64,000 nt of DNA, from positions 133,796,001 to 133,860,000 of the forward strand of contig CM097884.1 in assembly GCA_044892505.1 (NCBI GenBank), read 5' to 3'. Source of the DNA: Schmidtea nova. Its lineage: Eukaryota. Of this stretch, positions 8,678-42,200 are shown piece after piece. The position numbers were made by a program, and so were the translations under genes. Under the pieces are notes generated by a model. That model saw only the letters and a list, made by a program, of their open reading frames with translations. It ran no database searches and was not told the origin of the DNA. Numbering within the stretch: position 1 is the stretch's first letter; each line of letters begins with the position of its first letter.

Positions 8678-8864
8678 AAAACTGATTGACAAATGTGTAA
8701 ATTGTGTTCAAATATTAATGTTCAGTGGTGTTTTTATTTTGTTGTTTTGAGTTTTTGTTCAGTGTTTTTTAATAGTTCGTATTCGTAACCTAATAATCCT
8801 ATAATCAGATTTTAATTTTTCACATAATTTAATCATAAAGTAAATCTCCTAAATAAATTATAGA

Positions 8865-9930: not shown

Positions 9931-9948
9931 TGGGGGCTCAGCCGGGAT
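9931..9948 (+). promoter_or_regulatory. Primer-binding site, tRNA-Pro-like (second copy 36654-36671)
   Basis: TGGGGGCTCAGCCGGGAT lies 6 nt after the LTR end and matches the canonical tRNA-Pro PBS TGGGGGCTCGTCCGGGAT at 16/18 positions. Confidence 0.85.
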
Positions 9949-11547: not shown

Positions 11548-11587
11548 GGCCAATGAGCCTTATTGAATGACCTAGCTAGGCGTTATG

Positions 11588-11940: not shown

Positions 11941-12552
11941 GTGAACTATAGATATATCCGGATAAAATAGTAATAGAGGGAATATAGACCCATAGTGTAA
12001 TCGTCGACGAGATTTAGAGTAGTGCGCACCAGTAGTTAAGAGAATGCGAGTAAAGCTGATTATGCAACCTTAGGTAAAGCATGCAAGGAGAATAATAAAA
12101 ATTGGAGCTGACCGGAGAAACCGGCAGAATAGACAAAAGGATAAGTTAGAGACGAATAATGAGTAGAGATGATAAAATAATGATAAACGAGTCAGAAAGA
12201 CTCAGGGAATTAGAGCGCTCGAGCGACCAATAATTTGGGAAACGGTGGGAAAAGTAATTGATTTGATAAAACATAGATAATTATTACGACATAAACAGAT
12301 AATTGTGACCAGTCTATAGATAATTTAAATAGACTAAAAATAAAGGGGAATCTGGGAATTGGGAAATAATGAAAACCCAGTAATAAGTAATCCCGAAAGA
12401 AAGTGAATAAAAGCGCGACGATAACAATAATGTATCGTTGAGGACCTTTGTATTTTAGATATACAAATCAATCAAATCAAGCAATCAAGCAAGAAGAATC
12501 AGAACACGATAAGAGATAGGACAAGAAAATTGAGTATACAAAAGTAATCCCC

Positions 12553-21000: not shown

Positions 21001-24000
21001 GGAGGATAAAATAATCTACGAAAACGAAAGACTAGGTAAATTAACCCCAATGATGGATATCGAATTGCCAATAGAAGGAGCAGAGAAAGATAAAGAGCCA
21101 ACCTGGAATATAGATAGTGAATTATTAAATGAGGATCAAAGGAAGCAGTTAGAAAAACTCCTGATAGAGTATAAGGATATATTTGCAGCATCCGATTTGG
21201 ATCTAGGAACATGTGATGTCACACTACATACAATACCATTAACAGATGAAACACCAATTGCATTAAGGCCGTACAAATTAGCGGAAGCACAGAAAGCAGT
21301 AGCAGAAGCAGAAGTGAAGAAAATGTTGGATGCAGAAGTAATCGAACCAAGTTGTTCACCCTGGCAATTTCCAGTGGTAATGGTAAAGAAAAAAGACGGA
21401 ACACAGAGATTCTGCATCGACTATCGAAGATTGAATACAGTGACAAAAAGAGATACCTACCCATTACCGGACATCAATGAAATGTTATTAACCTTACAGG
21501 GAGCAGCATATTTTACGTCGTTAGATCTGAAAAGCGGATATTGGCAAATAAAAATGAAGGAAGAAGATAAAGAGAAAACTGCCTTTACCATCGGGAGAGA
21601 TTTATATCAATTTCGGAAAATGCCATTTGGATTAACGAACGCACCAGCATCATTTCAGAGATGCATGAATTTCGTCACCCACGGAATAAAGCAGTGCATG
21701 GTCTACATCGACGACTTATTGATTTACTCTAGTACATTCAAACAACACATACATGATATTCGAGATGTATTCGTTAGGCTTAGACAATGGAAGTTAAAAC
21801 TCAAGCCATCAAAATGCGATTGGGCAAAAGAAAAGGTTACATTTTTAGGACATATAGTGTCAGCAAAAGGAAAAGAACCGGATCCTAGAAATATCGACAA
21901 GGTAAAAGAATGCCCAGTACCAAAAACAATAACCCAAATACAAGAATTTCTCGGATTATGCGGATATTATAGAAAGTTTATAAAAGATTACGCCGGAATC
22001 GCAAAACCTATACAGGAACTGGTAAAGAAAGATGTATCATTCATATGGGGGGATGAACAACAAACAGCTTTTGAAACATTGAGAGATAAACTGATAACCG
22101 CACCCATATTGGTACACCCAGACTTCAAGAAGCCATTCCTACTTGCAACGGATGCAAGCGGATATGCAGCAGGAGCAGTATTAGGACAATACGATGATGA
22201 AGGAAAAGAACGTGTAATCGGATATTATAGCCGGACATTCAAAAAGCATGAGAAAAATTATTCAGTGACAGAACGGGAAGCATTAGCAATTATATTAGCA
22301 ATTAAACATTTTAAATATTTATTATGGGGACACATCATCTGCATAACAACAGATCACCAACCGCTTGTATGGTTAGGACAGCATAAGGAAACCTCCAGTA
22401 GACTAATGCGATGGGCAATGCAGTTACAGGAGTACTCACCAGACATAAAATTTAAATCAGGAAGAGCGAATGCGAATGCGGATTGTATGTCAAGACTGAC
22501 ATTTCCAGAACTAACCGATCCTGATGTACAACGGATTTGTGTATTAATAGCAGAAGATCTAGATTTTAGTGAGTTAAAGAAAGATCAACAGGAAGACAAA
22601 GAATTGGGACAGATCATAGAGTTCCTAACGTCTCGAAATATGGAGGTATTCAAGGATAATAAGGAATTAAAGGAACACATAGGAAAATATCAACATCGCT
22701 ACATAATAAATAAAGGATGGTTGTTAATACAAGACGGGGAAAAGAGATTGATGTGTTTACCGGAAAACAGAAGGAAAGAGATAATGATCCAGTACCATGA
22801 TGGGAAATTAGGAGGTCATATGTCCGAGAAAAAGACAATAAACCGTATGAGACAAAAATATTATTGGCGAACAATGGAAGAAGATATAAAAGAATGGATT
22901 AAAAATTGCCTAACTTGCGCAACCAGAAAGGATAGTGGGAAGAAATGGAAAAACCCGCTACAACCAATGCCGATACCAGCAGAGCCAATGACAACTATAG
23001 CAATGGACGTAATAGGACCATTACCAGAAAGTTTAAACGGAAATATTTATATATTGGTAATAACGGATTATCTGACGAAATTCCCGGAAGCATTTGCCAT
23101 GCAAGACCAAAAAGCAAAAACCGTAGCAAAAATTCTAGTGGAAGAAATATGTTGCAGATACGGAACTCCAAAACAAATACTCACAGACCAAGGAACTAAT
23201 TTTATGAGTGAATTATTGAACGAGGTGACAAACTACTTCAGAATAGCAAAATTGAGAACTTCACCATATCACCCGCAAACGAATGGACAAACGGAGCGAT
23301 TCAACGGCACATTGATTAGAATGTTATCAAATTACGTCAGCAGACATCAAACTGATTGGGACGAATACATAAAATTATGTTTAATGGCATACCGAATGTC
23401 GATACATGCAGCAACAAAACTAAGCCCATTTCAACTTATGTATGGAAGAGAATGCAACATGCCCATAGATTTAGAGTATCAGCCACCATTATCGCAATAT
23501 ATGGAAGATGACGACTACGTAACCAAATTCAAAGAAAGGATGCAAGAAATATGGAAAACGGCAGAACTCAACATTAAATTTTATCAGGAAAGTTATAAGG
23601 ATTTACACGACCAGAAGAAAAATGTTAAAGCGAACGATCTAAAACCAGGAGATTGGGTGATAATAGAAACTCCCGAAATAATACCAGGAACTGTTAAGAA
23701 ACTCCAAAGACCTGGAAGAGGACCTTATGAAATTATATACAAAAAGGACAATAATGTCAAAGTTAAGCTAATAAATCGACCGTTAATACGACCCATATAT
23801 GTAAACACCTGCAGATGTAAGAAAGTGCCTAAAACGATAACTACCACACCAGAAAATCGAATAATAACCAGATCACAAACAGCCAGGATAAATATGCTCA
23901 GAGCTAATGCAACGGAAGACGACAAAGCAGAAATAAGGCAAAAAGAAATCAGAAATAAAGAAATCATATTGAAGGCGAGAGAGATAATGGGAAGATGGCA

Positions 24001-27000
24001 TGTTAAAGACGAAGTAGGCATATCAAGGGATATTAGACATATAATTAGCCGTTACGCACAAGGATTACCAACCGAACCAATTATTTCTGAATTATTGGAA
24101 AAAATCCCTGAAATACTCTTATTGAAAGATGTAGGAGGACAACCAGCCTTACACAATGCGATAGAGTGTAAAAACATTGAAAGAGCAAAAGAATTCCTAA
24201 AAATCGCAAAAGAAACAAACCAAAACTTGGACGTAGGGAATCGTGAACAAGAAACTCCATTAATGACAGCCGCAATCCACCAAGCAGATAAAGAAATGGT
24301 AGATTTATTGATAAAAGCCCATTTCAGTTGGACAGAACGAGATAGAGAGGACAAAACAGTGCTAAATCACGTAATATGGAGTTCTCACCAACCAATGCTG
24401 AAATACATAATAGCTAACTCCACTTGGGAGATAGACGAACTAGTTAAAGGAGACATTATCAAAGAGGCAATCAAAATTGGTAAATGCAACACGATCCGTA
24501 AGTTAGTCAAATGGAAACGACCAGAAGATGATACATGGGTCTTAGACATAAACGAAGTATACAGCGAAGGACAAAACGCACTGTTAAGATACCTTTTGAA
24601 ATTTACTTGTGATCAGAAGACATTACTAACCTTATTAGACAGAGGAAACATAAACATCACAAAGAATGAAGAAGAACATCAATTCGATAAAGAAAAGAAT
24701 GCCTTATTCAACAAGATTAGGAAATGGTGTGCGAAACCACTTGATAAACTAATAACATACAAAGACATAAACAATTTTAACGAGAAATACCAAACGATAG
24801 TAAGCGAATATGAGGAATTAGTAAAAATCTTAAACCATCCCGAAAAATGCAAACAGGTTTTGGAGAAAAAAGAAAGAGAAAGTAACAAGAAACTCACACC
24901 ACTCTTTAAAGCAGAAGCACCATACCAAGCTAGACTAGATGCGATACAAAAAAAAGCAAAAGAATTGTTACCGGAATTCGAGAATAGCAAACATGCACTG
25001 GAAATACTCGGCGCATTAGTTGAAAAAGTACACGCATACGCAAAAGGAACATACAATGGTAACGATATAACGACTATAAAAAAGGAGATGCCAGTAACAT
25101 TTTTACTACCAAAGGACGGAATAATGCCCATACATAGAGCTTTACGAAATGGCAAAGATAGAAAAGTAATGGAAATTGCAAGAGTAATGCTAAATTGCGG
25201 AAGCAATATGAATATGATAGACGAGAAAGGAGATACACTTATGGTATTTGCAGCAAGGGCCAAAACGAAAACAAAGGTATTAGAGGAACTATACAAAGCA
25301 GGTGCAGGACTTACAGGTAAAACAGATAAAGATAATTCAATATTGGATGTAGCATTACTAACACATAATTGGGAAATGGTCAACTTCATTAAAACCATCT
25401 CAAATCAGGAAGAAATAGAATACCTAACTAAAACAATTAAGAAACCCAGTTTACTGACAATGATGCACAATGCCGAACTAACAGAATCAATACTTACGTG
25501 GATAAATCCTAATACCAACGAACCAGCATTCAAGATTAATGAGTTTACAGAACATAACCAAAACTGGTGTATAAGAAGTGCCTTAATAACGTATAAATGG
25601 CCCGAGATATTGAAGATGTTTATGGAAAGAAAGGATCTAAGAATCACAACCAGCCCGAAAGAAGAAAAATACACAGGCAAATGGAAAGAATTGATGAAGA
25701 CATACATCAACAATTGGATCAAGGCCAAAAAGGAAATCTTGGAATATAAATCCACTAACAAAGTAATACCGGAGCAGGTAGAAACACAAGAATTTGAGGC
25801 AAGTAACCTAACGACATTAGCATATGCAAAATTGATAGAAGAAATCAATGTCGAGGACGACATTTTCGACGAGCCAGGGGGAGATGACAATACAGATAGT
25901 GACGACGGTAACAACTCAGAAAATTCAAACGATCACGAACCACCCGATAAAGAGGAAAACGAGAGAAAAGACAAGAAACGAGACAAGGAAGAAAAGGAAA
26001 GTGAAGACGAAAAACAAAGAGATGAAGATGGAGAACAAGGAAAAAACGACCAAGGAGATAAAAATGACACCCAAAGAACAAGTTATAAATCAACCATAAA
26101 ACCATTCTTCAAACCAGAATTACTATTATTAACAGTGATTTTAACGTTAATTAACCCAAGTCAAGGAATGACATGTGAAGAAAGGGCAATAATACAAATA
26201 AAAAACGCAAAAGGAATCGAACGAGTATGTTGGTCAAAAAAGGACAAAATCACGGAACAAAATAGCCCGATGGATTGCAGAATCTCAAAACACGAGCAAG
26301 AGATCATAGAGATCAACGACCTAGATCTAGACACCTGGTACAAAATATGCACCGTTAGGAAACAAAAACATCCAAGATCACACAACACAATCGCATGTGC
26401 AAAATACCAAACACCTAAAGTAGCCATGACAATACAACAGTCACCCAAAGGAGATTACATCCTCGGAAAATGTGGAAGAACAGAGACACAAGGAACAGAA
26501 AACAAAAAACCCCAGGCAATAGATAAGCAAACAACACCAACCCTACGAATTACAATAGAGAGGCCCGAAACAAGAATTGCCACAAACGAAACCGAAAGAG
26601 TGTCTTACCAAATGGAAGTATTATGCTTAGCACTCATACTAATAATAATAAAACGATTAGAGGAAGGAATAGAAATTGAAACTATGACAATAACAGAAGT
26701 GGAGGATACACAGAACACTAACATAAAATGTTGGGCGAGGAATGACGAAGAAATCGGCGTAAACGAAATAAGGAAAAGTCGAAAGCCAACAACAAACAAA
26801 GTAATTAAAGTATCCGAAATAAGAGCAGACAAGATGTACAAACTATGCCTACTTGAAAAAGAGAGGAACAAGAAAGGTACCACAAAATGTAAAACATTCC
26901 AACCTGGAGAGGTAATAAAGTTCAGAAGGAGAACGAGGAAGAGAAATAAACAAATCAAGCAGAAACTAAACATAACATTAGAAATAAAAGAAATAGAACC

Positions 27001-29557
27001 AAATGTGAAAGGAGTATGCTGGAGGAAGTACGAAAAAGAAACGAATGAAAGAAAGACACCACAATGTCGAACAAGCACAGGAGCAACGACGATACAAATA
27101 AAAGGTTTAGAAAGTAAACAAACTTACGAAATATGTCTGGTAAAGAAAAATGATCAGATAACGATAAACGACCTAGAATGCGGAATATACACCACTTCAT
27201 CCGGAACCAGAACTAAAACGTTAACACGAAAAAATAAAAGAAGACAACGAAACAAAGGGAAACCGAAGTACACCACTACCTTTAAAAACAATAAACAACC
27301 GATAAGCCAGGAAGTTACGACAAAACCCGAGAGAAAGACATCAGCAACTCTAACATTATGGAAAATAGAGAATAAAACACTAGAAATATGTTGGATAATA
27401 GTTCAGAAACATATAAGAAGACAATCAAGAGAGTGCAGGAAAACAAATAAAGAAATCAAGATCGAAAAACTACAATTTAATAGCGAGTATGAAGTATGTA
27501 CAATAGAAAAAATGGACACACTAGGAAACCAACAAGAAAGATGCGAAACCTACTATACACCAGCAAACGCGACATCAAAAGGAGTAGCAAGGAAACTCGA
27601 ATTCAAAGAACTAAGCCAAACGAATGAACAAATGGACGCAGAAAAAACAATAACCGACCCTCAAGCAAAATGGACACCCGAAGAAGTTATCAAGGAAGTC
27701 AAAAGAAAGCAAGAGGAACGGGAACAATTAATGAGAAAACTAAAGGGACAATACGGAATAATGTTCAACCAAAGCGAACCTATACAAACAGACGAGAATA
27801 AAGAAATTAAAGAACTAATCGGCTTAGGAATATTAACAGCAACCATACCAGTAATAATCGCGTTATCAGCTATATGGATACGCAAGATGAGCCCAAGAAA
27901 ATCAACAACCCAATGGCTAAATATAGATAATACAAGCCATGGAGTAGAAATACTAGAAGAAAAAGCACGAGAAGAACCAAATAAGAAAGAAGCGAAAAGC
28001 GGAAAACTAGGAATAAACAACAAAGACAAGGAAATAAAAGAGATTAAAGGCGAAGAGAAAAAATATGAAAGGCGAACCAGAAGCCTACCGCAGAGTTCAA
28101 AATGGTTGAGTCTAACAATAATATTGACATTAATCAATAGGGAAGAAGCAACAAACCTACAAGCAGGGATAAAAATAGTAAATGTCCAGGAGGTCGAGAA
28201 AATATGCTGGAATAGAGAGGATGAACCAATTGGGAAAGATAACCCACTAAAATGTATAATCAGAAAATCCGACCAGGATATAGTACGAATAGAAGGGATG
28301 GACAGAGGAATCATACATAGGATATGCATAATAGGAAAGGAAAAGAAGTCGGGGCTACCTAAGACAGTCGTATGTCAAAAATACGAAACGCCTGGACTCG
28401 AATGGTATAGAGTAAAACCAACAAAGAAAGAAATCAAAAACACCATAGATCAACCAGCAACTCAGATAAGAAACACAACGGATAAACCAGGAGAAGGAGA
28501 GAAAAGCACCAATAAAACGAGAGAAAGAATATTACCCCAACAGGAGTGCGTATGCATAGCATTAATACTAGCAATGTCCAAACGTATCGATAAAGGAATA
28601 ATAATAGAACAAATGGCCATAACAATAAGGAAAACAAGTAGCAACAAACTATGCTGGGGAACATACAACGAACCAAGGAAGGAATACCAAGTTCAGACAA
28701 GCGACGAATCACGAACAAACAAGGAAATCGAAATACAAGAAATACAAATGAATGAAGAAGGAAGTATATGTATCTGGGAGAGAGGAATCCAAGAGGGAAT
28801 AGAGCATTGCAAGACATTCCAAAAAGGAGAGATACTGAAATTCGATGAAGAAGAATTAACAAAAACAGAAAGAACTCTGACATTAACAGGACTCGATCAG
28901 ACAGTTAAAGGAATATGTTGGACAAAGCATAACCCAGAAGGGGAAGAAGACAACCTAACCCACTGTAAAGAAATAAAGAATAAAGAAAAAATCGAATTAA
29001 GGAAAATGGAAGTAAATAAGACATACGCGATATGTACCTTCACTAGAAAAGGTTCAGAAAAACCAGAATGCGGATTATATCAGATCTCAGAGAAACTACA
29101 ACAACAGATCGAACCAGGAAACGTGGAAAACCGAACAAAAGAAAATAACGTCAAACAACTACTAAATCGCCATTGGTCTACACAAGAAGTAATGAACAAA
29201 GTCAAGAATCAAGTACAGAAGGAGAAGAAGCCAGAGGCTCAAACCCAAAATGAGATAAAAGCGAATCAGAATAAAATCAAAGCAACAAACCGTGGAAAAA
29301 CAGTAATAGGATTAATCAGTATAGGAATATTAATAGCATATGGGATAATGACGACAAGCATAATAAAATATTGGAGATACAGAAAGAGAAACAAAGCGAC
29401 AGCCATACAATGGCCAGATATTAAAATTATGAAGCAAAGAATAGAAATACCAGAAGAGATACAGCAAGAATTCCAAAGAAGAACGAAAGGTAAAGAATTC
29501 TGGAAACAAATAGAAGACGAAGAACGATACGAGGAAAAGACGATAATGATGGTATAG
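18041..29557 (+). CDS. pol: Unit 1 Env-Pol-accessory polyprotein (3838 aa)
   Basis: Signal peptide plus glycoprotein (18041 to about 19956), protease DTG at 20489, RT YIDD at 21704, RNase H (LATDASG at about 22142), integrase (about 22796-23830), ankyrin repeats (about 24127-25390) and FN3-like modules (about 26117-29373). Confidence 0.9.
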   Translation: MNLSSIIIMMLIWMISTDSATAFEVFDCDQMKLGEKYSLRGTEQCKDATPVELQKIKKEQWYHVYQEAELIKTMVNECKVQKTRFAFYCGRGHYSAIVMPGTEREPIVLQGEDCEALFKHGEVTTRDKIKIRGKPGMMMQQTYYVAGRITGGEGYCQGETYPIFGVPATNLVVMDTYIVELKSYEAFFEPTTGEMKTLSMCKIDRSMCQTGMSTLVYKPKVNECQLQLLQGAKFDEIQGKTFQEEDDDDKDRAKHLKEALENKRQLKPDHREKRIEMRATPTVLITTNQDVGMRFIKGKATLKCSTTVYETNYPGIYVSKQEVPNAKPKIDTMDIKLHLYVNNKMDFLFHRGQASLQKVYYDLINNDCILNREILKTKLAVAITNPDRAMPLLPLREGHFGRVVGEAMYVYICEKTHASLAATTQLKPGTCTNELEIDYKGKVRYVQPVTRIINPPGFEPNPFNCSNAYGPLYQKPDGRWVMFPGRSEVIAPREFELMQLSKDRQFSDVDVSNNGIYSPKDLEAARQNILFPARREALLSNIVTITGGTNYREGPNYELLLSPAHFKKATENMMKAMWGRFLIFGQMMAGILGVILIIQIVRVIITQMLACFDIYKREKKVNWKMVVGFLPFLAKTMVLHGHSKDIHRIKRLLKILAKMKGTDEEVGRKFKKIMNDEQARQQLKRERKGLWERMKGYKTQNDSSDDDDDDDDYKGGQVYKNQAPQYIEKNPADAWKCYAPPPTMYQEPLQGGKNSTMQMMPMTNVYPMIPEDYKMRRCRSVDPQGDTHTIAVMSSNTGPVLTTTIEINGREIEAMIDTGANISAIDIKWIPQEQRREIERTNVHVIACSKEVVEVAGRWWVKIRHLNTEIDTYVAVIPALSVPCIIGTDLMPALFKEIVIDLGTMRLKDRTGQICAIEAKVTSSKQMIIPARKEKICYVKIDPTIQGDMIFEPSKRFEKRKALPMARGLVNINDNGEIPINMVNFDEEDKIIYENERLGKLTPMMDIELPIEGAEKDKEPTWNIDSELLNEDQRKQLEKLLIEYKDIFAASDLDLGTCDVTLHTIPLTDETPIALRPYKLAEAQKAVAEAEVKKMLDAEVIEPSCSPWQFPVVMVKKKDGTQRFCIDYRRLNTVTKRDTYPLPDINEMLLTLQGAAYFTSLDLKSGYWQIKMKEEDKEKTAFTIGRDLYQFRKMPFGLTNAPASFQRCMNFVTHGIKQCMVYIDDLLIYSSTFKQHIHDIRDVFVRLRQWKLKLKPSKCDWAKEKVTFLGHIVSAKGKEPDPRNIDKVKECPVPKTITQIQEFLGLCGYYRKFIKDYAGIAKPIQELVKKDVSFIWGDEQQTAFETLRDKLITAPILVHPDFKKPFLLATDASGYAAGAVLGQYDDEGKERVIGYYSRTFKKHEKNYSVTEREALAIILAIKHFKYLLWGHIICITTDHQPLVWLGQHKETSSRLMRWAMQLQEYSPDIKFKSGRANANADCMSRLTFPELTDPDVQRICVLIAEDLDFSELKKDQQEDKELGQIIEFLTSRNMEVFKDNKELKEHIGKYQHRYIINKGWLLIQDGEKRLMCLPENRRKEIMIQYHDGKLGGHMSEKKTINRMRQKYYWRTMEEDIKEWIKNCLTCATRKDSGKKWKNPLQPMPIPAEPMTTIAMDVIGPLPESLNGNIYILVITDYLTKFPEAFAMQDQKAKTVAKILVEEICCRYGTPKQILTDQGTNFMSELLNEVTNYFRIAKLRTSPYHPQTNGQTERFNGTLIRMLSNYVSRHQTDWDEYIKLCLMAYRMSIHAATKLSPFQLMYGRECNMPIDLEYQPPLSQYMEDDDYVTKFKERMQEIWKTAELNIKFYQESYKDLHDQKKNVKANDLKPGDWVIIETPEIIPGTVKKLQRPGRGPYEIIYKKDNNVKVKLINRPLIRPIYVNTCRCKKVPKTITTTPENRIITRSQTARINMLRANATEDDKAEIRQKEIRNKEIILKAREIMGRWHVKDEVGISRDIRHIISRYAQGLPTEPIISELLEKIPEILLLKDVGGQPALHNAIECKNIERAKEFLKIAKETNQNLDVGNREQETPLMTAAIHQADKEMVDLLIKAHFSWTERDREDKTVLNHVIWSSHQPMLKYIIANSTWEIDELVKGDIIKEAIKIGKCNTIRKLVKWKRPEDDTWVLDINEVYSEGQNALLRYLLKFTCDQKTLLTLLDRGNINITKNEEEHQFDKEKNALFNKIRKWCAKPLDKLITYKDINNFNEKYQTIVSEYEELVKILNHPEKCKQVLEKKERESNKKLTPLFKAEAPYQARLDAIQKKAKELLPEFENSKHALEILGALVEKVHAYAKGTYNGNDITTIKKEMPVTFLLPKDGIMPIHRALRNGKDRKVMEIARVMLNCGSNMNMIDEKGDTLMVFAARAKTKTKVLEELYKAGAGLTGKTDKDNSILDVALLTHNWEMVNFIKTISNQEEIEYLTKTIKKPSLLTMMHNAELTESILTWINPNTNEPAFKINEFTEHNQNWCIRSALITYKWPEILKMFMERKDLRITTSPKEEKYTGKWKELMKTYINNWIKAKKEILEYKSTNKVIPEQVETQEFEASNLTTLAYAKLIEEINVEDDIFDEPGGDDNTDSDDGNNSENSNDHEPPDKEENERKDKKRDKEEKESEDEKQRDEDGEQGKNDQGDKNDTQRTSYKSTIKPFFKPELLLLTVILTLINPSQGMTCEERAIIQIKNAKGIERVCWSKKDKITEQNSPMDCRISKHEQEIIEINDLDLDTWYKICTVRKQKHPRSHNTIACAKYQTPKVAMTIQQSPKGDYILGKCGRTETQGTENKKPQAIDKQTTPTLRITIERPETRIATNETERVSYQMEVLCLALILIIIKRLEEGIEIETMTITEVEDTQNTNIKCWARNDEEIGVNEIRKSRKPTTNKVIKVSEIRADKMYKLCLLEKERNKKGTTKCKTFQPGEVIKFRRRTRKRNKQIKQKLNITLEIKEIEPNVKGVCWRKYEKETNERKTPQCRTSTGATTIQIKGLESKQTYEICLVKKNDQITINDLECGIYTTSSGTRTKTLTRKNKRRQRNKGKPKYTTTFKNNKQPISQEVTTKPERKTSATLTLWKIENKTLEICWIIVQKHIRRQSRECRKTNKEIKIEKLQFNSEYEVCTIEKMDTLGNQQERCETYYTPANATSKGVARKLEFKELSQTNEQMDAEKTITDPQAKWTPEEVIKEVKRKQEEREQLMRKLKGQYGIMFNQSEPIQTDENKEIKELIGLGILTATIPVIIALSAIWIRKMSPRKSTTQWLNIDNTSHGVEILEEKAREEPNKKEAKSGKLGINNKDKEIKEIKGEEKKYERRTRSLPQSSKWLSLTIILTLINREEATNLQAGIKIVNVQEVEKICWNREDEPIGKDNPLKCIIRKSDQDIVRIEGMDRGIIHRICIIGKEKKSGLPKTVVCQKYETPGLEWYRVKPTKKEIKNTIDQPATQIRNTTDKPGEGEKSTNKTRERILPQQECVCIALILAMSKRIDKGIIIEQMAITIRKTSSNKLCWGTYNEPRKEYQVQTSDESRTNKEIEIQEIQMNEEGSICIWERGIQEGIEHCKTFQKGEILKFDEEELTKTERTLTLTGLDQTVKGICWTKHNPEGEEDNLTHCKEIKNKEKIELRKMEVNKTYAICTFTRKGSEKPECGLYQISEKLQQQIEPGNVENRTKENNVKQLLNRHWSTQEVMNKVKNQVQKEKKPEAQTQNEIKANQNKIKATNRGKTVIGLISIGILIAYGIMTTSIIKYWRYRKRNKATAIQWPDIKIMKQRIEIPEEIQQEFQRRTKGKEFWKQIEDEERYEEKTIMMV

Positions 29558-29681: not shown

Positions 29682-30038
29682 ATGACCGAACAGGACGAAA
29701 CAACTGAAATAACTATGGCTATGAGATGGAAGGCACAATGTGATTTATTAGTACGAACAGTCAACTCATTACAGAACCAATTAGCGGAAAGACAAATGTT
29801 ATTATCAGAAAGTTATAACAACTGTTTTGAACAATTACACAGAATAGAAGAACAACAAAGAGCGATAACTGAACTCACCAGAGAAAATCAAACGATAAGC
29901 AACACCAATCAAAGACAAGCAATAGAAATAAACCATTTAACACGAGGAGAAAGAGAAGGATCCGAAGAAGGATGGATGAGTTGGGTAATAAATAGATTAA
30001 ACAACGAAGCGGAACCAGATTCAACGAATGAGCCATAG
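29682..30038 (+). CDS. Hypothetical coiled-coil protein (118 aa); copy at 56414-56770
   Basis: ATG ORF rich in Q/E/L with heptad character; same A-rich codon style as the element. Confidence 0.6.
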   Translation: MTEQDETTEITMAMRWKAQCDLLVRTVNSLQNQLAERQMLLSESYNNCFEQLHRIEEQQRAITELTRENQTISNTNQRQAIEINHLTRGEREGSEEGWMSWVINRLNNEAEPDSTNEP

Positions 30039-30131
30039 ATAAATAAAGCGGAAAACTGTAAATATGTAAAAATAAAAACAAGAAAAATCAAAAAATAAAT
30101 GACAAGTCGAATGTATATATTATTGTAGAAA

Positions 30132-31508
30132 ATGGACAGAGAAGAACGAATAATCGAAATTTTGAGACTAGAAAACAGAAAATGGAGCAAGAGACTCACA
30201 TGCGGAAAATGTAATAATTTATTGCGAGAACCCAGACAAACGATATGTGGATGTAGAATATGTACAAAATGTATACAAGAATTAGAGGCAACAGGAATAA
30301 CAACATGTCCAGAATGTAAAGAGGGAAGAATAGTGTTGGACGAAACTAGAACGGACAAAGCAACCCAAAGAGAAATTATGAGCACCACAACGGAGTGCGT
30401 AAATACACCTTGTACATGGCAAGGACAAATAAGCAATCTAGTGAATCATATGGGAAAATGCGAGGAAAAGAGAGCCGAATGTGAGAAATGCCAACAGACA
30501 ATAACTCTAAAGAAGAGAGAACAACACAAGGAAGAATGTAAAGAAGAAGAAATCGCATGCGAGTATTGTGAAACTCGAGAAACGAGGAGAAAAATCGAAG
30601 AAGAACATTTGAATATAACAGAGGAGAAAGTATGCGGACAATATGCAAGTAAATGTCCAAACGATTGTGAAATAACAGAAGAAATAAAGTTACATGAACA
30701 TTGGAAAGTATGTACCGAAAGGCCAAGAGAATGCCCATATAACAAGCATGGATGCAAGGAAAAGCGGACGCGACAAACAATGAACAAACATCTAGAAGAA
30801 GCAGCACTTACGCATGTGGAAATGACAAACGAAACGACAAGAGAAACGGAACAGACAATCCAGAAATTAGGAAAAGAAGTAGAATCACATAAGATAATGA
30901 TGAGTTTACTACTAGAAACAAGAGAGCAGTTTGAACTAACTCGCGAAAGAATGGAAAAGAAAATAATAGCCATAGAAGAATTAGGAAAAGGAATGAAAAT
31001 ACAATATAATCAATTAATACGAGAAATTGACGAAAGAAGGGACTTACCAATCGCACCTTACCTATGGAAAGTAACAGATTTCAGAGACAAACTAGCAGAA
31101 GCCAGAAATATGACGAAAACAGCAGTAATAAGCCCACCATTTTATTTATGGAAAAACGGGGTTAAAATAAGATTGAAAGTATACCCAAATGGAGACGGAA
31201 GAGGACAAGGAACACACGTGTCAATATTCTTCTCACTATGTAAAGGAGAATACGATGACCTAATAGAATGGCCCTTGAAAGTAGGAGTCATTATAAGAAT
31301 CAAAAGTATGGGAAAACCAGTAGAAAAATTCTTTGAAACAGACAAACATACGAGTACAAGTGAAAAACCAACAACGGAATGCGGACTAGCAGCAGGAGAA
31401 CCAATGTTTATAAGGAAGGAAAACCTATGGGAACGACTATATGCAGACACGCTATACATAGAGATGGAGAGGCATGAGAAAACGGATAAAAAAGGATGGT
31501 TGGCGTAA
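30132..31508 (+). CDS. TRAF: TRAF-family protein (RING, TRAF zinc fingers, coiled coil, MATH), 458 aa, intronless
   Basis: RING CGKC…CGCRICTKC…CPEC, zinc fingers (CVNTPCTW…HMGKC, CPYNKHGC…H) and MATH YLWKVTDF…SPPFY…KVYPNGDGRGQGTHVSIFFSLCKGEYDDLIEWP. Confidence 0.92.
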   Translation: MDREERIIEILRLENRKWSKRLTCGKCNNLLREPRQTICGCRICTKCIQELEATGITTCPECKEGRIVLDETRTDKATQREIMSTTTECVNTPCTWQGQISNLVNHMGKCEEKRAECEKCQQTITLKKREQHKEECKEEEIACEYCETRETRRKIEEEHLNITEEKVCGQYASKCPNDCEITEEIKLHEHWKVCTERPRECPYNKHGCKEKRTRQTMNKHLEEAALTHVEMTNETTRETEQTIQKLGKEVESHKIMMSLLLETREQFELTRERMEKKIIAIEELGKGMKIQYNQLIREIDERRDLPIAPYLWKVTDFRDKLAEARNMTKTAVISPPFYLWKNGVKIRLKVYPNGDGRGQGTHVSIFFSLCKGEYDDLIEWPLKVGVIIRIKSMGKPVEKFFETDKHTSTSEKPTTECGLAAGEPMFIRKENLWERLYADTLYIEMERHEKTDKKGWLA

Positions 31509-31619: not shown

Positions 31620-32681
31620 ATGGGAAATATAGAGGTAACCTTACAAGAAGTAACCGTACATCAAGACGAAATGATCAGAAATCACATGGAGCGGATTGGG
31701 AGATGGATTCATGCCTATTATCGAAAACAGGAGGAATTAGAAAGACAAACCGAAGCACTAAGAGAAGCCGAGAAAACGAATCAAAGAAGTCGAGAAAAAA
31801 TAGAAGAAGTCTACAAACTGCTAAGACAACAAAACGAATACTACAAAGAGATGATGAAAGAGCGAAGAGAGGATAGGGATAGACAACAGATAAAAACAGA
31901 CCATAAGATCCAGTCAATCACCGAACAAGCAAGATATTGGAAGAAAGAGGCAAAAGACTCTTACAAGGAAGCAAGGGAGATAATAGAACGAACAGCGTAT
32001 AGCGATGATTGGAAACTATTTAAAGAGATCGATGAATTAAAAGAGGAATTAGGGCAAAAGATCAGTCAAGAAGCGTCAAATAAAGTATGGAGTAAGAAAA
32101 GACAACAATTTATCAGAGAACAAGCCAAGAAAATTAAAGAATTAACTTATCAAGTGCAAAGAATGGGAGAAGATTTGGCCAATCAAGAACAGTTAAAAGG
32201 TATGCTGACCGGAATGTGGAATCACAAGGAAGAAAACATGAAAAGAGACATAAATGGATATCAAGGAGTGATTACCCAGAAGAAAATAGAATTAAAAAGA
32301 ACTAAAGAAAGACTGGAAGAAACGAGGCAGAGTTATGAAGAGAACATAACAAATTTGACAAAAGAAAACGAAGAACTGAGAAAGAAGTTGGCAGAAAAAC
32401 CAATACCAATAAAAGAAACAAGTATCACAGCAGCAGTGACCGAAATGATGGAGAAGGAAGAGAGAGAGAAAAAATTGACAGAACTGGAAAAACAAATTGA
32501 AACCCTAACAGAACAGGCGAACTATCTGGAATACTTATTAGATGAAGAGATCCAGATATCCCACACATACCGAGAAGAAGTAGAAATGTGGAGGAGCACG
32601 GTAATATGGATGCCACTCCCCATAAACCAAGTGGAACCTCAAGACGAAGGTTTTCACGAACCCAACGAAACCCTGGTATAA
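31620..32681 (+). CDS. Long coiled-coil protein (353 aa); copy at 58352-59413
   Basis: ATG ORF, E/K/R/Q-rich heptads throughout; no family recognised. Confidence 0.7.
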   Translation: MGNIEVTLQEVTVHQDEMIRNHMERIGRWIHAYYRKQEELERQTEALREAEKTNQRSREKIEEVYKLLRQQNEYYKEMMKERREDRDRQQIKTDHKIQSITEQARYWKKEAKDSYKEAREIIERTAYSDDWKLFKEIDELKEELGQKISQEASNKVWSKKRQQFIREQAKKIKELTYQVQRMGEDLANQEQLKGMLTGMWNHKEENMKRDINGYQGVITQKKIELKRTKERLEETRQSYEENITNLTKENEELRKKLAEKPIPIKETSITAAVTEMMEKEEREKKLTELEKQIETLTEQANYLEYLLDEEIQISHTYREEVEMWRSTVIWMPLPINQVEPQDEGFHEPNETLV

Positions 32682-32723: not shown

Positions 32724-33326
32724 ATGTCAAACTGTATTGACCAATGTATAAAAGAGATGAGAAAGCTCACAATAGCAACCCTCCTATGGTTAACAACCAT
32801 TACCCTACAGAGAGAAGATTTACAACTAACCGAAACCCAATTACGAGCTCTACCCGACAAAACCTACCAGAAAGTAGACAACCTAATCGAGGAAGTAATT
32901 AAAGAAATCAACGAATTCCGACAGAAATACCCCCACAATCAAGACCATCAAATCCAACAAATTTTCGGTAACCAACAACTGAAATTAAAAGAAACCCGAA
33001 AAATCCTGAGAGAGGGTAGAGAGCCCATAAAAAGCCTATCCCAAGCTGAAATAGAATATCAAGAAAAATGGATCATAGCAATCATCATAATCCTATCAGT
33101 CAGCACAACTATCATCGCAATCACAATCCTACTTGCCTCATATAGAATAAAAATCCTAAAACAAAAGCAGAAAATCTACAACCAAACCTCCAGACGAGAT
33201 AACCGAGCTCAAAGACGAATAAGGAGCCATCTCAACCACATTCAAACCCACTACGAGCTACAAATAATCAACGAGAGGACCCGAACTCAACCCCAAGCGA
33301 GCCAGACGATCGAACAAATTGTATAA
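32724..33326 (+). CDS. Hypothetical single-pass membrane protein (200 aa); copy at 59456-60058
   Basis: N-terminal hydrophobic stretch (LTIATLLWLTTITL) and TM WIIAIIIILSVSTTIIAITILLASY followed by basic residues. Confidence 0.65.
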   Translation: MSNCIDQCIKEMRKLTIATLLWLTTITLQREDLQLTETQLRALPDKTYQKVDNLIEEVIKEINEFRQKYPHNQDHQIQQIFGNQQLKLKETRKILREGREPIKSLSQAEIEYQEKWIIAIIIILSVSTTIIAITILLASYRIKILKQKQKIYNQTSRRDNRAQRRIRSHLNHIQTHYELQIINERTRTQPQASQTIEQIV

Positions 33327-33528: not shown

Positions 33529-36500
33529 TGTTGGGCCCGCCAAATCACCTAAAACCACAATAAAACGAACAAAAGCATGAAACAATAAAGAAATAATAAA
33601 AATAAAAATAGCAAGAAAAACAAATTAAAAATAACAATAAAACGACAAATAATAATTGATAAATTTTCAGTAAAAGGAAATTTTGAAAATAAACCGGTAA
33701 ACAACCGCAAAAGGGGGCCTGAAATAAGAAAAAATAGAATTAAATAAAATAATAGTGCAAATAATTAATTAATTATTTGAAAAATCAGGACCACCCAGCG
33801 AGAAACCGGAAAAGGAAACAAAATAATGTTTAGATTAGAATAAAATAATAAAAAATACTTTGATGGACGGCCTGATCCTGATTGGTCAATCCAACCAGAC
33901 GGATCAGTATAAATACCGATCCAAAAATCACAACAAGAGACGTTTTACTTTTCACTTACAATCAAGACTAAACTTTGATTTAAGTAATATTTCATTTAAC
34001 AAAACGAGAATTTTTTGAAAAACAGAATTCAAGTACGGAACGTAATTTTTATTGTTATTTTTTATAATGTACCCATGATTTTTATTCAATTAAAATTTTA
34101 TATGTAAACGTCATTTTATTTGTTTTTGATATTGATATTTTAATGCATATAGTTATACTTCCTATGCTGCTCACGCGGCGAGGGAGTCCGAGTCGTCGTT
34201 GTGGGGCCTCAGTGTCTCACATGGCGGTTCAACCTTTTTATTATTTAGTTTAGATGTGGAATTTTATTTAGAAAATTTGATTGAATTCTTAGTCTAGTAC
34301 AGACCATTTACTAATTATTTAAGTCTGGGTTGCACAACGGACGAAGGTCGAGGGCCAAATAGGGAGATTGCGGAGGGCGGATTGATAAGGAGGGACACCC
34401 CATGGTAGGGCATGCTCATCCTTTGAATTTTTAGTCAATTGAATCGTAATGGAACCTCCCGCATGGAGAAACAGTGAGCAACAAATAAAATAAATTTGAA
34501 TAATTTCGCTGAAATGAGAAAATTCATCGTAGTCTAAAGTCCGATTTCATTCGGAATCAGCATCTCGCCTACAAAATTATAATATCGATAAATTCCGATC
34601 GCGTTGGAATGCGTCGGAAAATCCAAATTAAATTAGTTACTAAAAATAGGCCGATCGTCGTATATGGCGCGGTTTCCCAAGTTATTCTCCGATCGCTGTA
34701 TACAGCGCGGAAATCTGTATTAAATTCTATATTCCTGAATGCTGTATATAGCACAGGACTAATTATGAACTCTTTATTACGACCGTGGTAGATCACGGCG
34801 GAAAAAGATAAAATTAATCTTATTTTAAAGTAACTTTTGTGATTATATGCGGTATAAATGAATTATCAACAAATTCCCTCCGGTAAATCACATATTTTAT
34901 ATTCAATAAATGTAATATAGATGTCGACAGCCGAACTTAGGAATCAATTAACTCAACTACGGAATGTGGAACAAAGGAATATACAGAATGGAAAGATCTC
35001 GCAGCTCAAGGATCTACCGGCATCGATATTGCGAACCCTCAATTGCCAGATATATAAGTGGCGACATGGGTTTGGCCGAAAATGCCCGTTCTCGATATGG
35101 ACAGGAGGGAACGACCAAATACTCTATAGAGGAGGACCGAACTGGCCGATTTCCCAAAGGCCTTATTCAAACAAATTTGGCCGACTTATCGTACTAGTCA
35201 AGGACACAGATGGACGGACAAGCCGTGTAATTTATTGGGGGCATATCCCTCGTCGGGAACTATGCCAACTAGGCCTACACGAATTTCTACCACGAAAACC
35301 ATTCGGCAAGGAGTGCCAGAAAGGACAACCCTCATTCTCTTGGGCTCGTCTTCGTCGGAGGCCGATTAACAGCGAATTCCATAGCTTGTTTCGGAGATAA
35401 AAAACTGATTGACAAATGTGTAAATTGTGTTCAAATATTAATGTTCAGTGGTGTTTTTATTTTGTTGTTTTGAGTTTTTGTTCAGTGTTTTTTAATAGTT
35501 CGTATTCGTAACCTAATAATCCTATAATCAGATTTTAATTTTTCACATAATTTAATCATAAAGTAAATCTCCTAAATAAATTATAGAATGACCACCGATT
35601 TGATACAGAGAGAATTGGAAAAGATGTGGCGGATCCGGAGAGCCCAGGACAAAGAATTGGGTCTCCTCAAGGCACAATTGATCAAAGCAGAGGCACAGAT
35701 CGCATACTTGCGCAAAAGCTGGTTTGCTCCGGCCCGAATGAAGGAGCAAATCAGCAAAACCGAACGCGCCCAACAGACCGCAGCCGATTATCAAATGGAA
35801 TGGGAGGCTACAAAGATAGAGCTCCGAAAATGCCTCCATTCCGTAACTGCCTCATATATCGAGAAGGAACTCAGAGAGCAAATCCGTCCGGTTACGTACC
35901 AAGCTTGGACATCCGAAAAGAAGACTGTAAATTCCATTGGCACGGATGTCGCCGATCTAATCGAAAGTCGGAATGAGCCGGTTTCAGCAGTAATTCCATC
36001 CACCTCAACGGCAAATGCGCACCAAAAACGCAAGCGCATTGGGCAGAAAAGGCGAAGACAGAGGAAATTATTCGCGCAGCGATTACAAAGTCAAGTGGAT
36101 GGTCTACATCAGATGACCGAAGAGAACTTATTGAAGGAAATTTTCCCTTCAGCTGGAGTTTTTACAGAACTAATTAAATAAAATTTTGGGTTATCTTAAA
36201 AAATTTATGTTTCCTTTAAATTGATTTGGTAAATTGACAAATAATTAGATCAATATAGTATAAAAGTATAAATTCACATCACGAATTATCTAGTAAAGGC
36301 AAATAAATTATTAAGCGAGCAGTTTGATTTAAACGCTTCCCGCAGAATACGAAATGTTGAAAATAAATTTTCTAAAAAGATTATTGCGGAATATCTAAGC
36401 AAATGATTTAAGCATAAGTCCTTCTAACGGCAGCAATGGACCCGTAAACATAAATGGGGAGTAGTACTAGCGATAGTGCTCACCTGCCCATCATTGTTTA

Positions 36501-36647
36501 ACCACCCTGCGCATCACCAACTTGATTATATAGGGAAATAATCAAGGGCGCTTGAGTGTAAAATTGCAATTTTATGTATGATCATGGATGAGGGATCCCT
36601 AGTCATTGTTAGAACATTTTTCATCTAACCCCTCCATGAACCCAGCA
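33529..36647 (+). repeat. LTR2 (shared central LTR, 3119 bp)
   Basis: Same sequence as LTR1. One private SNP was spotted (T at 34213 versus G at 7490 and 60945). It is preceded by the 3' priming region and followed by a PBS. Confidence 0.95.
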
Positions 36648-37438: not shown

Positions 37439-39273
37439 TAAATAAAATTTGAATGGAATTTTATTGGTTTATTAATGATAAAATCATGGGTACAATTGTC
37501 ATATATAAATAATTTTTGAGCTACTGCAAAGTAGTCCGATAAGAATCCATTGGGAGGTACCGATTGATCAACCTAGTCAGGGTGTATAGAAAGGGGCCCA
37601 TCGCAAATGTTGGAAAGTTTTTGTGATGTGATTGATCACCACATCCTGCATTAATGGACCAACGCGATCTTTTTGTATATTTTGGTTGGGGAGAGAGATA
37701 GGGAAATCGTGATGGAGTAAAGCGCGCATAGAGAAAAATAAATAAAAAGGCTAACGCAGACTGATCAGTAAATAATCACGATAGAATAGAGAGAAATGAC
37801 ATTTTTGAAAGAATAAAAGGTGCATAGTCAGCTCGCATAGAAGTAGTTATAACTCAGCTGAGAAATTTTAATCGCTAGCGAAGTAGGGAATTGTGATTAA
37901 CCGGTTAAGTAAAGTTATATGAGATTTGTCCCTTGAAACAAAGGGTTAGGAGATTTGTCCCTTGAAACAAAGGGTTAGGAGATTTGTCCCTTGAAACAAA
38001 GGGTTAGGAGATTTGTCCCTTGAAACAAAGGGTTATGAGATTTGTCCCTTGAAACAAAGGGTTAGGAGATTTGTCCCTTGAAACAAAGGGTTATGAGATT
38101 TGTCCCTTGAAACAAAGGGTTAGGAGATTTGTCCCTTGAAACAAAGGGTTATGAGATTTGTCCCTTGAAACAAAGGGTTATGAGATTTGTCCCTTGAAAC
38201 AAAGGGTTATGAGATTTGTCCCTTGAAACAAAGGGTTATTAGCGGTTTGTCCCTTGAAAAAAAGGGTTGAGGCCAATGAGCCTTATTGAATGACCTAGCT
38301 AGGCGTTATGGAGAAATTAAATTGAGGCCAAGAGAGCCATTTGAGAGATTAAATTGAGGCCAATAGAGCCATTTGAGAGATTAAATTGAGGCCAAGAGAG
38401 CCATTTGAGAGATTAAATTGAGGCCAAGAGAGCCATTTGAGAGATTAAATTGAGGCCAATAGAGCCATTTGAGAGATTAAATTGAGGCCAAGAGAGCCAT
38501 TTGAGAGATTAAATTGAAGCCAAGAGAGCCATTTGAGAGATTAAATTGAGGCCAAGAGAGCCATGTGAGAGATTAAATTGAGGCCAATAGAGCCATTTGA
38601 GAGATTAAATTGAGGCCAATAGAGCCATGTGAGATATAAAATTAAGGCCAGAAGAGCCATAGTGAACTATAGATATATCCGGATAAAATAGTAATAGAGG
38701 GAATATAGACCCATAGTGTAATCGTCGACGAGATTTAGAGTAGTGCGCACCAGTAGTTAAGAGAATGCGAGTAAAGCTGATTATGCAACCTTAGGTAAAG
38801 CATGCAAGGAGAATAATAAAAATTGGAGCTGACCGGAGAAACCGGCAGAATAGACAAAAGGATAAGTTAGAGACGAATAATGAGTAGAGATGATAAAATA
38901 ATGATAAACGAGTCAGAAAGACTCAGGGAATTAGAGCGCTCGAGCGACCAATAATTTGGGAAACGGTGGGAAAAGTAATTGATTTGATAAAACATAGATA
39001 ATTATTACGACATAAACAGATAATTGTGACCAGTCTATAGATAATTTAAATAGACTAAAAATAAAGGGGAATCTGGGAATTGGGAAATAATGAAAACCCA
39101 GTAATAAGTAATCCCGAAAGAAAGTGAATAAAAGCGCGACGATAACAATAATGTATCGTTGAGGACCTTTGTATTTTAGATATACAAATCAATCAAATCA
39201 AGCAATCAAGCAAGAAGAATCAGAACACGATAAGAGATAGGACAAGAAAATTGAGTATACAAAAGTAATCCCC

Positions 39274-42200
39274 TTGAGAAAAGGAGCAAAGAGTGTCGTA
39301 GTAAAGCCAACGGAAAAGAAAGTCGGTAGCAACATTAACAAAAAAGACAAAACTAGTACTACAACAAAATCAACAAAAAAGCAGAAAGCCGGCAAAGATA
39401 ACCCACAAGGGAGTAAATCGAGGAAAATAATAAGAGATAAATCGATTACCGAAAACGATAAATTGTCAATAGTAAGCAACAGCTCAAGTAACAAAGAAAA
39501 CCAAGCCGAACCCAAGGAGAACCAAGCAAGTGAAATAGAGAGCGACGAAACTAACAACAATAATATCGAAGAAATAGAACACGAGATAGAACAAGAAGAA
39601 GAAATCGACGAAACTAACAACGATAATATCGAAGAAGTAGAAAACGAGGTAGAACCAGAGATAGAAATCAACGCGAGTGATAACGAAAGTATAATATCAG
39701 ATAACGAAGGAATAAAAGAAACAGAAAGCGATTCAAGCTCGAGTAAAACGGAAGACGAACATAACAACGAACTAGAAACAAGAGGAAACGAAAGTAAAAT
39801 AACTCAAGACAGCGGAATTGAAATGGGTGAACCAAGAGAAGAAATAAAGGATAAATTTTCAGGAGAACCGTTTAACGGAGATGCGAGTAAATTAGAAACC
39901 TTTTTAAAAGAATTTGGCATATTCGTGGAGGTATGCAAGTGGAAAGCTGAAACAACGGTAAGCAGAATTCAGTTATATTTGAAAGATAGTGCATTGGACC
40001 TATATTTGGAAGCGAAAAATGGTACCAATCCACCTACAAGCTGGACAGCGATAAAGGATTTTTTCCAACAAACATTTGGAATAAATAAAGTGCTGAGCGA
40101 GGCATTCATAGAATTCTCAATGAGGAAACAAAAGATGAATGAATCTAATGCGGTATACGCGAGCGAACTGAAAAAATTAGCAAAATCGGTATTCAAGGAT
40201 GGAGGCCCAATAAACGAGGAGTTAATGGCAGCTATCTTCATAGGAGGACTAAAAAGACCCGACATAAGAGCGCAAGTAGGATGTCAAGGATGCAAAACCA
40301 TAGATCAAGCGTTAGAAACAGCTAACCGATTTGAATTGCATATGATAGGAAGTGAGGGCAGAATTTATTTAGCCATGGACACAGCACAAACCGAACCAGA
40401 GGTAAATCTCAACAATCACATTCCAAATTCGCAACAATTAAACCGACCACCCCCTCAACGAAGGAATGAAGGAAATAAAGTGCAGAACTTTGGAAACCAA
40501 AACAATTACAACCCTCAAGGACAAACAAAACAATGTAAAACATGCGGGAAGTTGGGACACTGGCAACAAGAATGCTATCAAATTTTGAATTGCGGAAAAT
40601 GTGGAGTTAAAGGACATTCGGAGAGTAGATGTTCTACAATAATCTGTTTTAATTGCGGACGACCTGGTCACTATTCAAGAAATTGCGGACAAAAAAGTAA
40701 TCAACGAGGAAACTGGCAGAGTAATGGGAACCGACCAAATTACGGAAATCAAGCAAATACCGTAAACCGACCAGATTATGGAAACCAACAAAACAACAAT
40801 AACAATAATCAGAACAAAACTACCACCAAAGAAATTCATTTGATGCAAGAAGTTCAAAGGTTGACGGAACTGATAAACAACACGGCGAGAGGAAATCCGC
40901 AAATCAATCCACAACAAATTAGCATGATGAGAAAGATAGAAAGCGAAAACGAACGATTAAATCGAGAAAGTCAGGCACGACACGCTCAGGAATGGGCAAG
41001 AATACAAAGGGAAGATGAACAAAAACAACAAGAAAGAGAACGACAACCTCTAAGAATTAACATGCTAAGAGCAACAAACCAAACAGACACTCGCGAGAAA
41101 GAAACCACACTGGAAATGAATTCGATAGACCCGAATCCAGCCGACAACAAAAGTCAAAAGGAGATAGTACAAAAAGATGAGGAAGTAGAAAAAGAAACAG
41201 AAAAGGAAGTGGAAACTGAGATAAACCAGGAAGAGAGAAGAAAAATTTGGAAAAAAGGAATGATGGTAATCATGCCCAACGACCATATGTTTCGATTCCA
41301 ATATAACGCAAAAGAAAAGGTGGAAATACTGTTCAATAAAGTAAACCAGATGATTCCAGGAGTGACAAAACTGCCCAGAGAAGCGTTCTTACAAATAGGA
41401 GATGCACCATCAGTAAAATTGAAATTAACGGATATATGGGAAAACGTGGGAGTAACAGAGACAAAAAGAAATGTGATGAGAATTAAAGAAATAGAACCAG
41501 AAGAAATTCCACCACCAATACGTCACGAAACCCGAATCCGGCGAATATTTGAAGGAAAAATGATAAGAAGACGTTTAAAAGAGATAGACGAGTTGGGAAA
41601 GAAAATGGAAAAAGTCGAAGTAATAGAGGATAAGAGTGAACCAACACCAGAAATTGACAAAAACGAACCAGAACCAACGGAGAATATACAAGGGGAAACG
41701 AACCAAACAGCACATATTAATATGCTAAGAAATACCACCAGAGAGTTCTCCGATGAGGAAGAAGATAGTGACATCAGTAGCCTAGCAGGAGACATATTAA
41801 ACGAATCCGAAGACGAAAATAAAGAGAGAGAAGTAATAAAGACCTCAGAACCTACACAGATAAAAGTAGATGAAATCCAGAAATTACTAGATAACTCGCT
41901 AGAGGTAATATATAACGAAGAGTTCATGGACAAGAAACAATATCGGAAATTCATGAAAGCATTATTACAAATGAACTACAAAGAATGGTTACAAGACCGG
42001 GAAGTAGACATGTTGAATCGATACGTAGGGAAATTAATAGAGGAACCACTCCTCAATTACACCATCTCAATAATAATAAATACATCTACACCAAGAATCT
42101 GGATCAAAACTCCATTTACAGACGATATCTACAGATGGGTAGAGGATAGACTAGGGAGCTCATATAAAAACAAATTCATCTATTCGCAGAATAGACTCGT

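Follow-up and report, generated by a model that had tools for sequence, protein, structure and literature searches.

The window analysed here is a stretch of 64,000 nucleotides of Schmidtea nova (GenBank assembly GCA_044892505.1, contig CM097884.1, forward strand, positions 133,796,001 to 133,860,000). Self-comparison reveals that the region from 6806 to 63379 is arranged as LTR-internal-LTR-internal-LTR, that is, as two tandem copies of a 29.85-kb element whose LTRs, leader features, polyprotein and accessory open reading frames (ORFs) all lie on the + strand. LTR 1 (6806..9924) measures 3119 bp, begins with TG and ends with CA, and is preceded by TTTT; LTR 3 (60261..63379) is identical to it and is followed by TTTT, which makes this tetranucleotide a candidate 4-bp target-site duplication. 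LTR 2 (33529..36647), common to both tandem copies, is one base off LTR 1 and LTR 3. The copies are 99.93% identical (seven mismatches and two gaps over 29,853 columns), and the near-identity of LTRs and copies indicates that the insertion is very recent. The presence of two copies and a middle LTR inside one target-site duplication may be due to insertion of a concatemer, unequal recombination or an assembly effect. A primer-binding-site-like sequence is found at 9931..9948, presumably for tRNA-Pro; no tRNA genes were found in the window. The leader contains tandem repeats with units of 29 and 32 nt (11043..12050). Outside the element, a hAT-type transposase is encoded in two overlapping frames at 94-2156, and the nested near-perfect inverted repeats beside N gaps at 4538-5942 may be a foldback element or else stem from the assembly.

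The polyprotein of copy 2 (39241..56289) is a single frame of 5682 codons, and that of copy 1 (12520..29557) is read in two frames, 12520-18087 and 17981-29557, with a frameshift near 18.0 kb. Its domains occur in the order Gag with CCHC knuckles, a Bcl-2-like segment, a Monjiviricetes-type fusion glycoprotein (Env; E 1.6e-73), PR, RT, RH, IN, ankyrins and fibronectin type III (FN3)-like repeats. At 12520-13101 the frame is open for about 190 codons ahead of the first polyprotein ATG, and translation may in fact begin at a non-AUG codon or at a start supplied by splicing. The Bcl-2-like segment (44278..44676) lies directly ahead of Env and had no match by sequence in Pfam or among PDB sequences. 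Its predicted structure is poor (pLDDT 52.9); all of the Foldseek matches listed for it belong to the Bcl-2 family, at a best E of only 6e-3, and comparison of this low-confidence model with VIA gave the best Z score, 7.9 (rmsd 4.0, 119 residues aligned). Three segments that look ubiquitin-like by eye (41218-41490, 42568-42840 and 43363-43590) yielded one weak Ubiquitin_4 match (E 0.081) and no BLAST match to the relatives, and the PR-RT spacer had no match to dUTPase; ubiquitin/SUMO-like and dUTPase-like motifs both belong to the Burro pattern.

The polyprotein tail (52738-56289; about 26000-29557 in copy 1) contains approximately six FN3-like repeats in two groups, both of which close with a hydrophobic segment followed by a short tail; the FN3 call is a lead only (atlas score 0.80). 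None of the eight related polyproteins tested has it. One of the short tails carries a W-P-D-I stretch which we take to resemble the Box1 of cytokine receptors, and the FN3-like region may represent a receptor-like decoy. TRAF-binding motifs, of which there are eight in the 5682-aa polyprotein and none in four accessory ORFs or in the tails after the hydrophobic segments, proved uninformative.

The accessory ORFs lie on either side of the polyprotein. Upstream, an IAP-type RING ORF (10254..10715; copy 2 at 36977-37438) matches the XIAP RING at E 2e-10; no Pfam match to BIR was found in it or elsewhere among the 11 ORFs scanned. Two ORFs inside LTR 1 (8198-8677 and 8865-9458) have no Pfam match, and their codon usage departs from that of the remaining element. 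Downstream, the TRAF ORF described below is accompanied by ORFs of 118 aa (29682..30038) and 353 aa (31620..32681; probably a coiled coil), both without a confident family match, and by one of 200 aa (32724..33326) with a single hydrophobic stretch. The last of these has C-richer codons than the rest of the element, with 46% C at fourfold sites, which sets it apart from the other internal ORFs, and may be a later capture.

The TRAF ORF is intronless and full-length, running open throughout from ATG to TAA at 30132..31508 (458 aa). Its second copy (56864..58240) differs by one non-synonymous change, base 30442 being the sole mismatch. The predicted protein possesses an all-Cys (C4C4) RING (C24-C62; 30201..30317), five TRAF-type zinc fingers (aa 89-228; 30396..30815) with 20/20 ligands in place, a TRAF-N coiled coil (helix aa 225-302 in the AlphaFold model; 30804..31037) and a MATH/TRAF-C domain (aa 310-448; 31059..31475) with a receptor groove that is degenerate in part. 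Pfam matches include MATH_2 (E 4.7e-21; aa 310-445), TRAF-mep_MATH (E 3e-19) and zf-TRAF (E 6.6e-7); the RING matches only weakly, to zf-C3HC4_4 (E 0.018, under the cut-off of that family). The N-terminal half matches the RING-zinc finger region of TRAF6 (E 4.9e-13) with 28 ligands in register. The AlphaFold model, built on a 12-row alignment, has a mean pLDDT of 81.9 and reveals the RING, the fingers, a 78-residue helix (225-302; pLDDT about 90) and a beta-sandwich (310-448). With this model Foldseek returned 148 PDB matches at E <= 0.001, headed by the domains of TRAF1/3/5/2 (E 2.6e-14 to 1e-12). A six-frame search with a TRAF profile found the two accessory ORFs only and nothing in the polyprotein. 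The sequence-only reading, which had proposed a complete TRAF with all of its modules on a retroelement, is thus borne out, since RING, fingers, coiled coil and MATH occur in a single ORF between the LTRs of the element in both copies.

A T-rich tract with a terminal TAG (30107..30128), a candidate 3' splice acceptor, ends 3 nt before the TRAF ATG. Acceptor-like YAG trinucleotides stand directly ahead of the ATGs at 8198, 8865, 10254, 29682, 30132 and 31620. A YAG within 0-3 nt of the ATG is found for 6/7 accessory ORFs, against 70/580 ATGs of the element (binomial p 2e-5) and, with the same rule in LTR, leader and spacer regions, 11/114 ATGs (p 5e-6), a statistic which was set up post hoc, after the sites had been seen, and in which the TAG is in two cases also an upstream in-frame stop. 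This pattern suggests spliced subgenomic mRNAs, for which the LTR could supply the donor in cis or a spliced leader could be joined in trans. The spacers on either side of the TRAF ORF, 93 and 111 nt in length, are more than 80% AT and contain three AATAAA each as poly(A)-like signals, which gives an operon-like layout.

The codon style of the TRAF ORF had been described as that of the element, and composition agrees, following the env/pol core and not the flanking hAT transposase. At fourfold sites it has A at a frequency of 0.68 (75/110), close to PR-RT-IN with 0.66 (p 0.87) and unlike the hAT ORFs with 0.46 (p 8e-7), and the bias is seen in all four TRAF domains; relative to the ankyrin and tail part of the polyprotein the fourfold composition is weakly different (p 0.037). 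With amino acids fixed, the codon log-likelihood ratio of 74.4 falls inside simulations under the element model (76.8 +/- 11.3) and above 3000/3000 simulations under the hAT model, which represents a transposase and not a host gene. Such a composition points to long residence of the TRAF on the element while giving no date.

The fourth RING ligand is Cys41 (codon 30252-30254), within C39-G-C41-R-I-C44, where the five TRAF6, TRAF2 and TRAF5 chains aligned show CGHRFC or CGHRYC. By the genetic code the change from His to Cys needs two base substitutions and is therefore no one-step slip. The homologue set comprised 150 representatives out of 5751 matches at E <= 0.001, and a CGC RING is present in 22 of them (24 fitted a non-His pattern, including a spurious match and a protein with Phe, both set aside). 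Among the 39 homologues scoring at least 160 bits, 11 have Cys, one Phe and nine His, and 18 have no RING match. The sole named CGC protein among the 22 is TRAF-5 of Dendrocoelum lacteum (UniRef T1D122; P0039), and each of the five named species sampled outside the planarians has His.

The trees leave out rows below 160 bits without the Cys motif, and His-type TRAFs are accordingly under-sampled in them. In the full-length tree (34 rows) the element TRAF groups with homologues P0011, P0026 and P0037 at 98/95, inside a 20-row non-His group (88/90). These four proteins have in common a make-up rich in K, E, T, R, I and Q and all fail the composition test, so the grouping may be partly compositional attraction; from the same likeness, P0011, P0026 and P0037 may also be element-borne. 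P0026 and P0037, the closest N-terminal relatives (41-43% identity), have no MATH domain and show RING deletions, features that would fit decayed TRAFs of related elements. The tree based on MATH alone, hence free of RING data, contained 29 rows after two long rows and three rows without or with a truncated MATH domain were excluded. It reveals a 17-row clade (96/96) which holds the element TRAF, P0039 and P0023 and has no His-type member; four further Cys rows fall outside it. On MATH alone the element TRAF joins P0011 at 81/55 only, and it sits on a long branch (1.82; median 0.73). This tree implies two changes for the Cys, with a single origin not rejected (p-AU 0.10). An innovation of the RING on this element is ruled out by the 22 CGC homologues and the 96/96 clade. 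The CGCRIC motif that had been pointed out is therefore real, but the accompanying statement that TRAFs have CGHRFC is wrong as a generalisation, and the proposed phylogeny, while recovering an all-Cys clade that includes a planarian TRAF-5, makes the RING change characteristic of a broader clade of invertebrate TRAFs instead of a peculiarity of the element.

The same homologues bear on constraint. All 28 zinc ligands are common to the element TRAF and P0011, P0030, P0032, P0033, P0035, P0039 and P0047 (seven of the 22 rows compared), which are 16-29% identical to it elsewhere in residues 20-230 (P0011 29%, D. lacteum TRAF-5 22%). A neutral passenger subject to the synonymous bias of the element would lose ligands; their retention argues for selection and against a decaying passenger, and makes neutral evolution, the outcome that was to have told against the initial proposal, improbable. 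The single TRAF difference between the copies gives no estimate of dN/dS.

Element-borne TRAFs appear to recur. An RT-IN search returned 37 long proteins, among which six at 48-53% identity have an in-frame Env and a seventh relative (45% identity) has a weak Env match. Within the eight related polyproteins no TRAF was found (0/8; best E 0.2), a count that covers polyproteins only. The N-terminus of P0023, a member of the all-Cys clade, matches an integrase-tail profile made from this element and eight relatives at E 1.5e-15, the only match among 33 TRAFs; the score is 53.3 bits against at most 14.3 in 2000 shuffles, and the pairwise E is 4e-4. Unless the record is chimeric, P0023 reads as a full all-Cys TRAF in frame behind a Burro-type integrase on another element, in agreement with the suggestion that other elements carry TRAFs. 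A sister relationship between P0023 and the element TRAF is not rejected (p-AU 0.085), which is compatible with a single capture.

What the RING can do is suggested less by the Cys than by its surroundings. C4C4 RINGs can be working E3 ligases, as described for Not4, which binds the E2 Ubc4 (PMC4431670), and the His-to-Cys change is therefore by itself a poor guide to activity. In the first RING loop, K26 and N28 take the place of Ile/Leu in TRAF6, Ala/Arg in TRAF2 and Phe/His in TRAF5; on this alignment, the polar residues at E2-contact sites would weigh more for E3 activity than the Cys. The second-loop Pro (P60), the basic residue after the last Cys (K63), L51 and the linker-helix Arg (R80) are kept. 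By one account (PMC5702613), TRAF2 apparently does not bind E2, and for TRAF5 reduced activity with Ubc13 is described together with complementation of TRAF6 in heterodimers.

For the MATH domain we assumed a mapping of receptor sites to TRAF2 numbering. On it, F366, I388, F401, T407-S408-T409, K349 and Y351 are kept or conservative, and S410 and E423 (F and C in TRAF3) are non-conservative, which affects 2/5 of the hydrophobic-pocket residues. The sites are those given for receptor hot spots 1-3 of the TRAF1/2/3/5 class in PMC6125299.

The reading we prefer, at a probability of about one half, is that of a TRAF2/3/5-like adaptor whose specificity is altered and whose ligase activity is weak, forming part of a pro-survival cassette. 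In the distant past a Burro-like, env-bearing element of Ty3/gypsy type would have captured a host TRAF of the all-Cys invertebrate clade, which would then have been retained by selection as a 3' accessory gene, probably expressed from a spliced subgenomic RNA via the acceptor just ahead of its ATG. The product, presumably a trimeric adaptor of TRAF2/3/5 type and itself a poor ligase, would enter or crowd the TNF-receptor and innate-immune complexes of the host, and together with the IAP-type RING, Bcl-2-like and ankyrin modules would tilt the expressing cell to survival. A pro-survival role is favoured because of this co-cargo, because the IAP of Burro1 is reported to protect planarian stem cells (PMC13465017), and because knock-downs of planarian TRAFs are reported to raise cell death (PMC7586133). 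Against the adaptor, the partly degenerate MATH groove and long MATH branch fit changed or decaying binding as well; against weak ligase activity, the second-loop Pro, the basic residue after the last Cys and R80 are all kept. Cellular IAPs bind TRAF2 via a BIR, and with no BIR match in the IAP-type ORF a direct TRAF-IAP link is unsupported.

A dominant-negative decoy, which would oligomerise with host TRAFs or take their partners and so damp antiviral or JNK signalling with no recruitment of a pro-survival ligase, is the rival that survives best, although we regard it as distinctly less probable than the adaptor. The polar E2-contact residues of the first loop, the partly degenerate MATH pocket and an IAP-type ORF lacking a BIR would all suit it, as would the hetero-oligomers known for TRAFs (PMC5702613). 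A decoy, however, needs only coiled coil and MATH, whereas the eight RING ligands and five zinc fingers are all kept; the sequence alone cannot separate it from the adaptor. An active C4C4 ligase, with restriction or death factors of the host as its ubiquitylation targets, is unlikely: the Not4-Ubc4 precedent (PMC4431670), the retention of P60, K63, L51 and R80 and the conservation of the RING through the clade are in its favour, but K26 and N28 sit where TRAF6 is hydrophobic, as is Not4 (L35 and I37 on a putative mapping).

It is quite improbable that the ORF is a neutral passenger, a host gene that lately inserted into the element, or a product of assembly error. The near-identity of the copies, which makes dN/dS unobtainable, the lone TRAF difference being non-synonymous, and a tandem that could be mis-assembled are compatible with such an origin. 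Against it stand a 458-codon open frame with 28/28 ligands and element-like synonymous sites in all four domains, the location between LTRs with a target-site duplication, a spacer and acceptor layout like that of the neighbouring ORFs, and the element-linked P0023. Least probable of all is a pro-apoptotic or lytic effector, for example one aiding particle release: the viral TRAF ISKNV ORF111L, which is described as binding TRADD and triggering caspase-8 apoptosis (PMC3352826) and so runs counter to a pro-survival role, and the Env of the element would favour it, but the IAP-type RING and Bcl-2-like modules carried alongside suggest the opposite and a resident element needs its host cell lineage alive.

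The TRAF would be a second testable host-survival gene beside the IAP of Burro1, and Cys at the fourth RING ligand together with the compositional bias provides cheap markers for telling element-borne from host TRAFs. In S. mediterranea 121 MATH domains (PMC6109357) and 282 MATH/TRAF contigs, many of them partial (PMC7586133), have been reported, and the meaning of the planarian expansion has been called unresolved (PMC8807557); the parts of this literature available draw no link to Burro. It is plausible that element TRAFs inflate such counts. More speculatively, all-Cys TRAFs may have shuttled between planarian genomes and Burro-like elements, much of the TRAF/MATH expansion of 121-282 transcripts being element or re-domesticated cargo, with these elements carrying a spliced, multi-gene mimic of a TNF/IAP/Bcl-2/IkB survival module that includes receptor-like FN3 decoys; this broader scenario we regard as less likely than not.

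Among known proteins, the element TRAF resembles vertebrate TRAF2/3/5 in domain order, in its best MATH match (TRAF3, E 2e-23), in K349/Y351 and in the T-S-T hydroxyl triad, and differs in the RING Cys, in 2/5 hydrophobic-pocket residues and in an identity of about 25-30%. With D. lacteum TRAF-5 it has in common the CGC RING, the same 28 ligands and the MATH clade, whereas that protein is only 29% identical, lies on another sub-branch and is without the K/E/T/R/I/Q-rich make-up. Not4/CNOT4 likewise has eight Cys ligands in a C4C4 RING but is an unrelated protein in which the hydrophobic E2 contacts of loop 1 are kept. Viral TRAF-like proteins are common: a BFVD structure search gave 49 matches at E <= 0.001, with an iridovirus TRAF as match 2/49. 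ISKNV ORF111L and the megalocytivirus TRAFs are similarly host-derived and combine RING, coiled coil and MATH within the genome of a virus; ORF111L, by contrast, is a fish-derived, pro-apoptotic protein of 296 aa from a DNA virus, and structural alignment with this viral group shows 18% identity.

The closest known counterparts of the element as a whole are the Burro elements of planarians, described as encoding Gag, a Bcl-2-like domain, in-frame Env, PR-RT-RH-IN and ankyrins, with MATH/TRAF and IAP-related cargo (PMC6431247). Like Burro/GYPSM1 in that description, the present element is about 30 kb (29.85 kb) with long LTRs (3119 bp), tandem repeats (29- and 32-nt arrays), Gag CCHC knuckles, a mononegavirus-like Env and ankyrins, Env being in frame and ankyrins present in copy 2; the putative BCL2-like segment may be a further parallel. 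Together with the nearest named TRAF, this architecture would by itself point to a planarian host. The element differs in that no BIR was found, in its FN3-like tail and in a polyprotein of 5682 codons from stop to stop, compared with 4873 and 5140 aa (PMC6431247); the MATH domain inside the polyprotein, the BIR and the 4873-aa ORF1 of Burro1/GYPSM1 were not found in it. The literature searched gave no account of a complete TRAF carried by an LTR element, nor of the RING variant, and earlier Burro descriptions may cover them. Capture of TRAF domains by Burro is already known from PMC6431247, which locates MATH_TRAF_C within the polyprotein of Burro1 and, for a D. tigrina element, in an accessory ORF lying upstream, the description not stating whether the latter is full-length; here, in contrast, the TRAF is complete and occupies its own ORF downstream of the polyprotein. 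The additions made here are a complete stand-alone 3' TRAF gene, the acceptor pattern and a second element-linked member of the clade. The known Burro cargo thereby goes beyond a MATH motif and includes an entire TRAF under selection, with a probable splice acceptor, next to IAP-type, Bcl-2-like and ankyrin modules.
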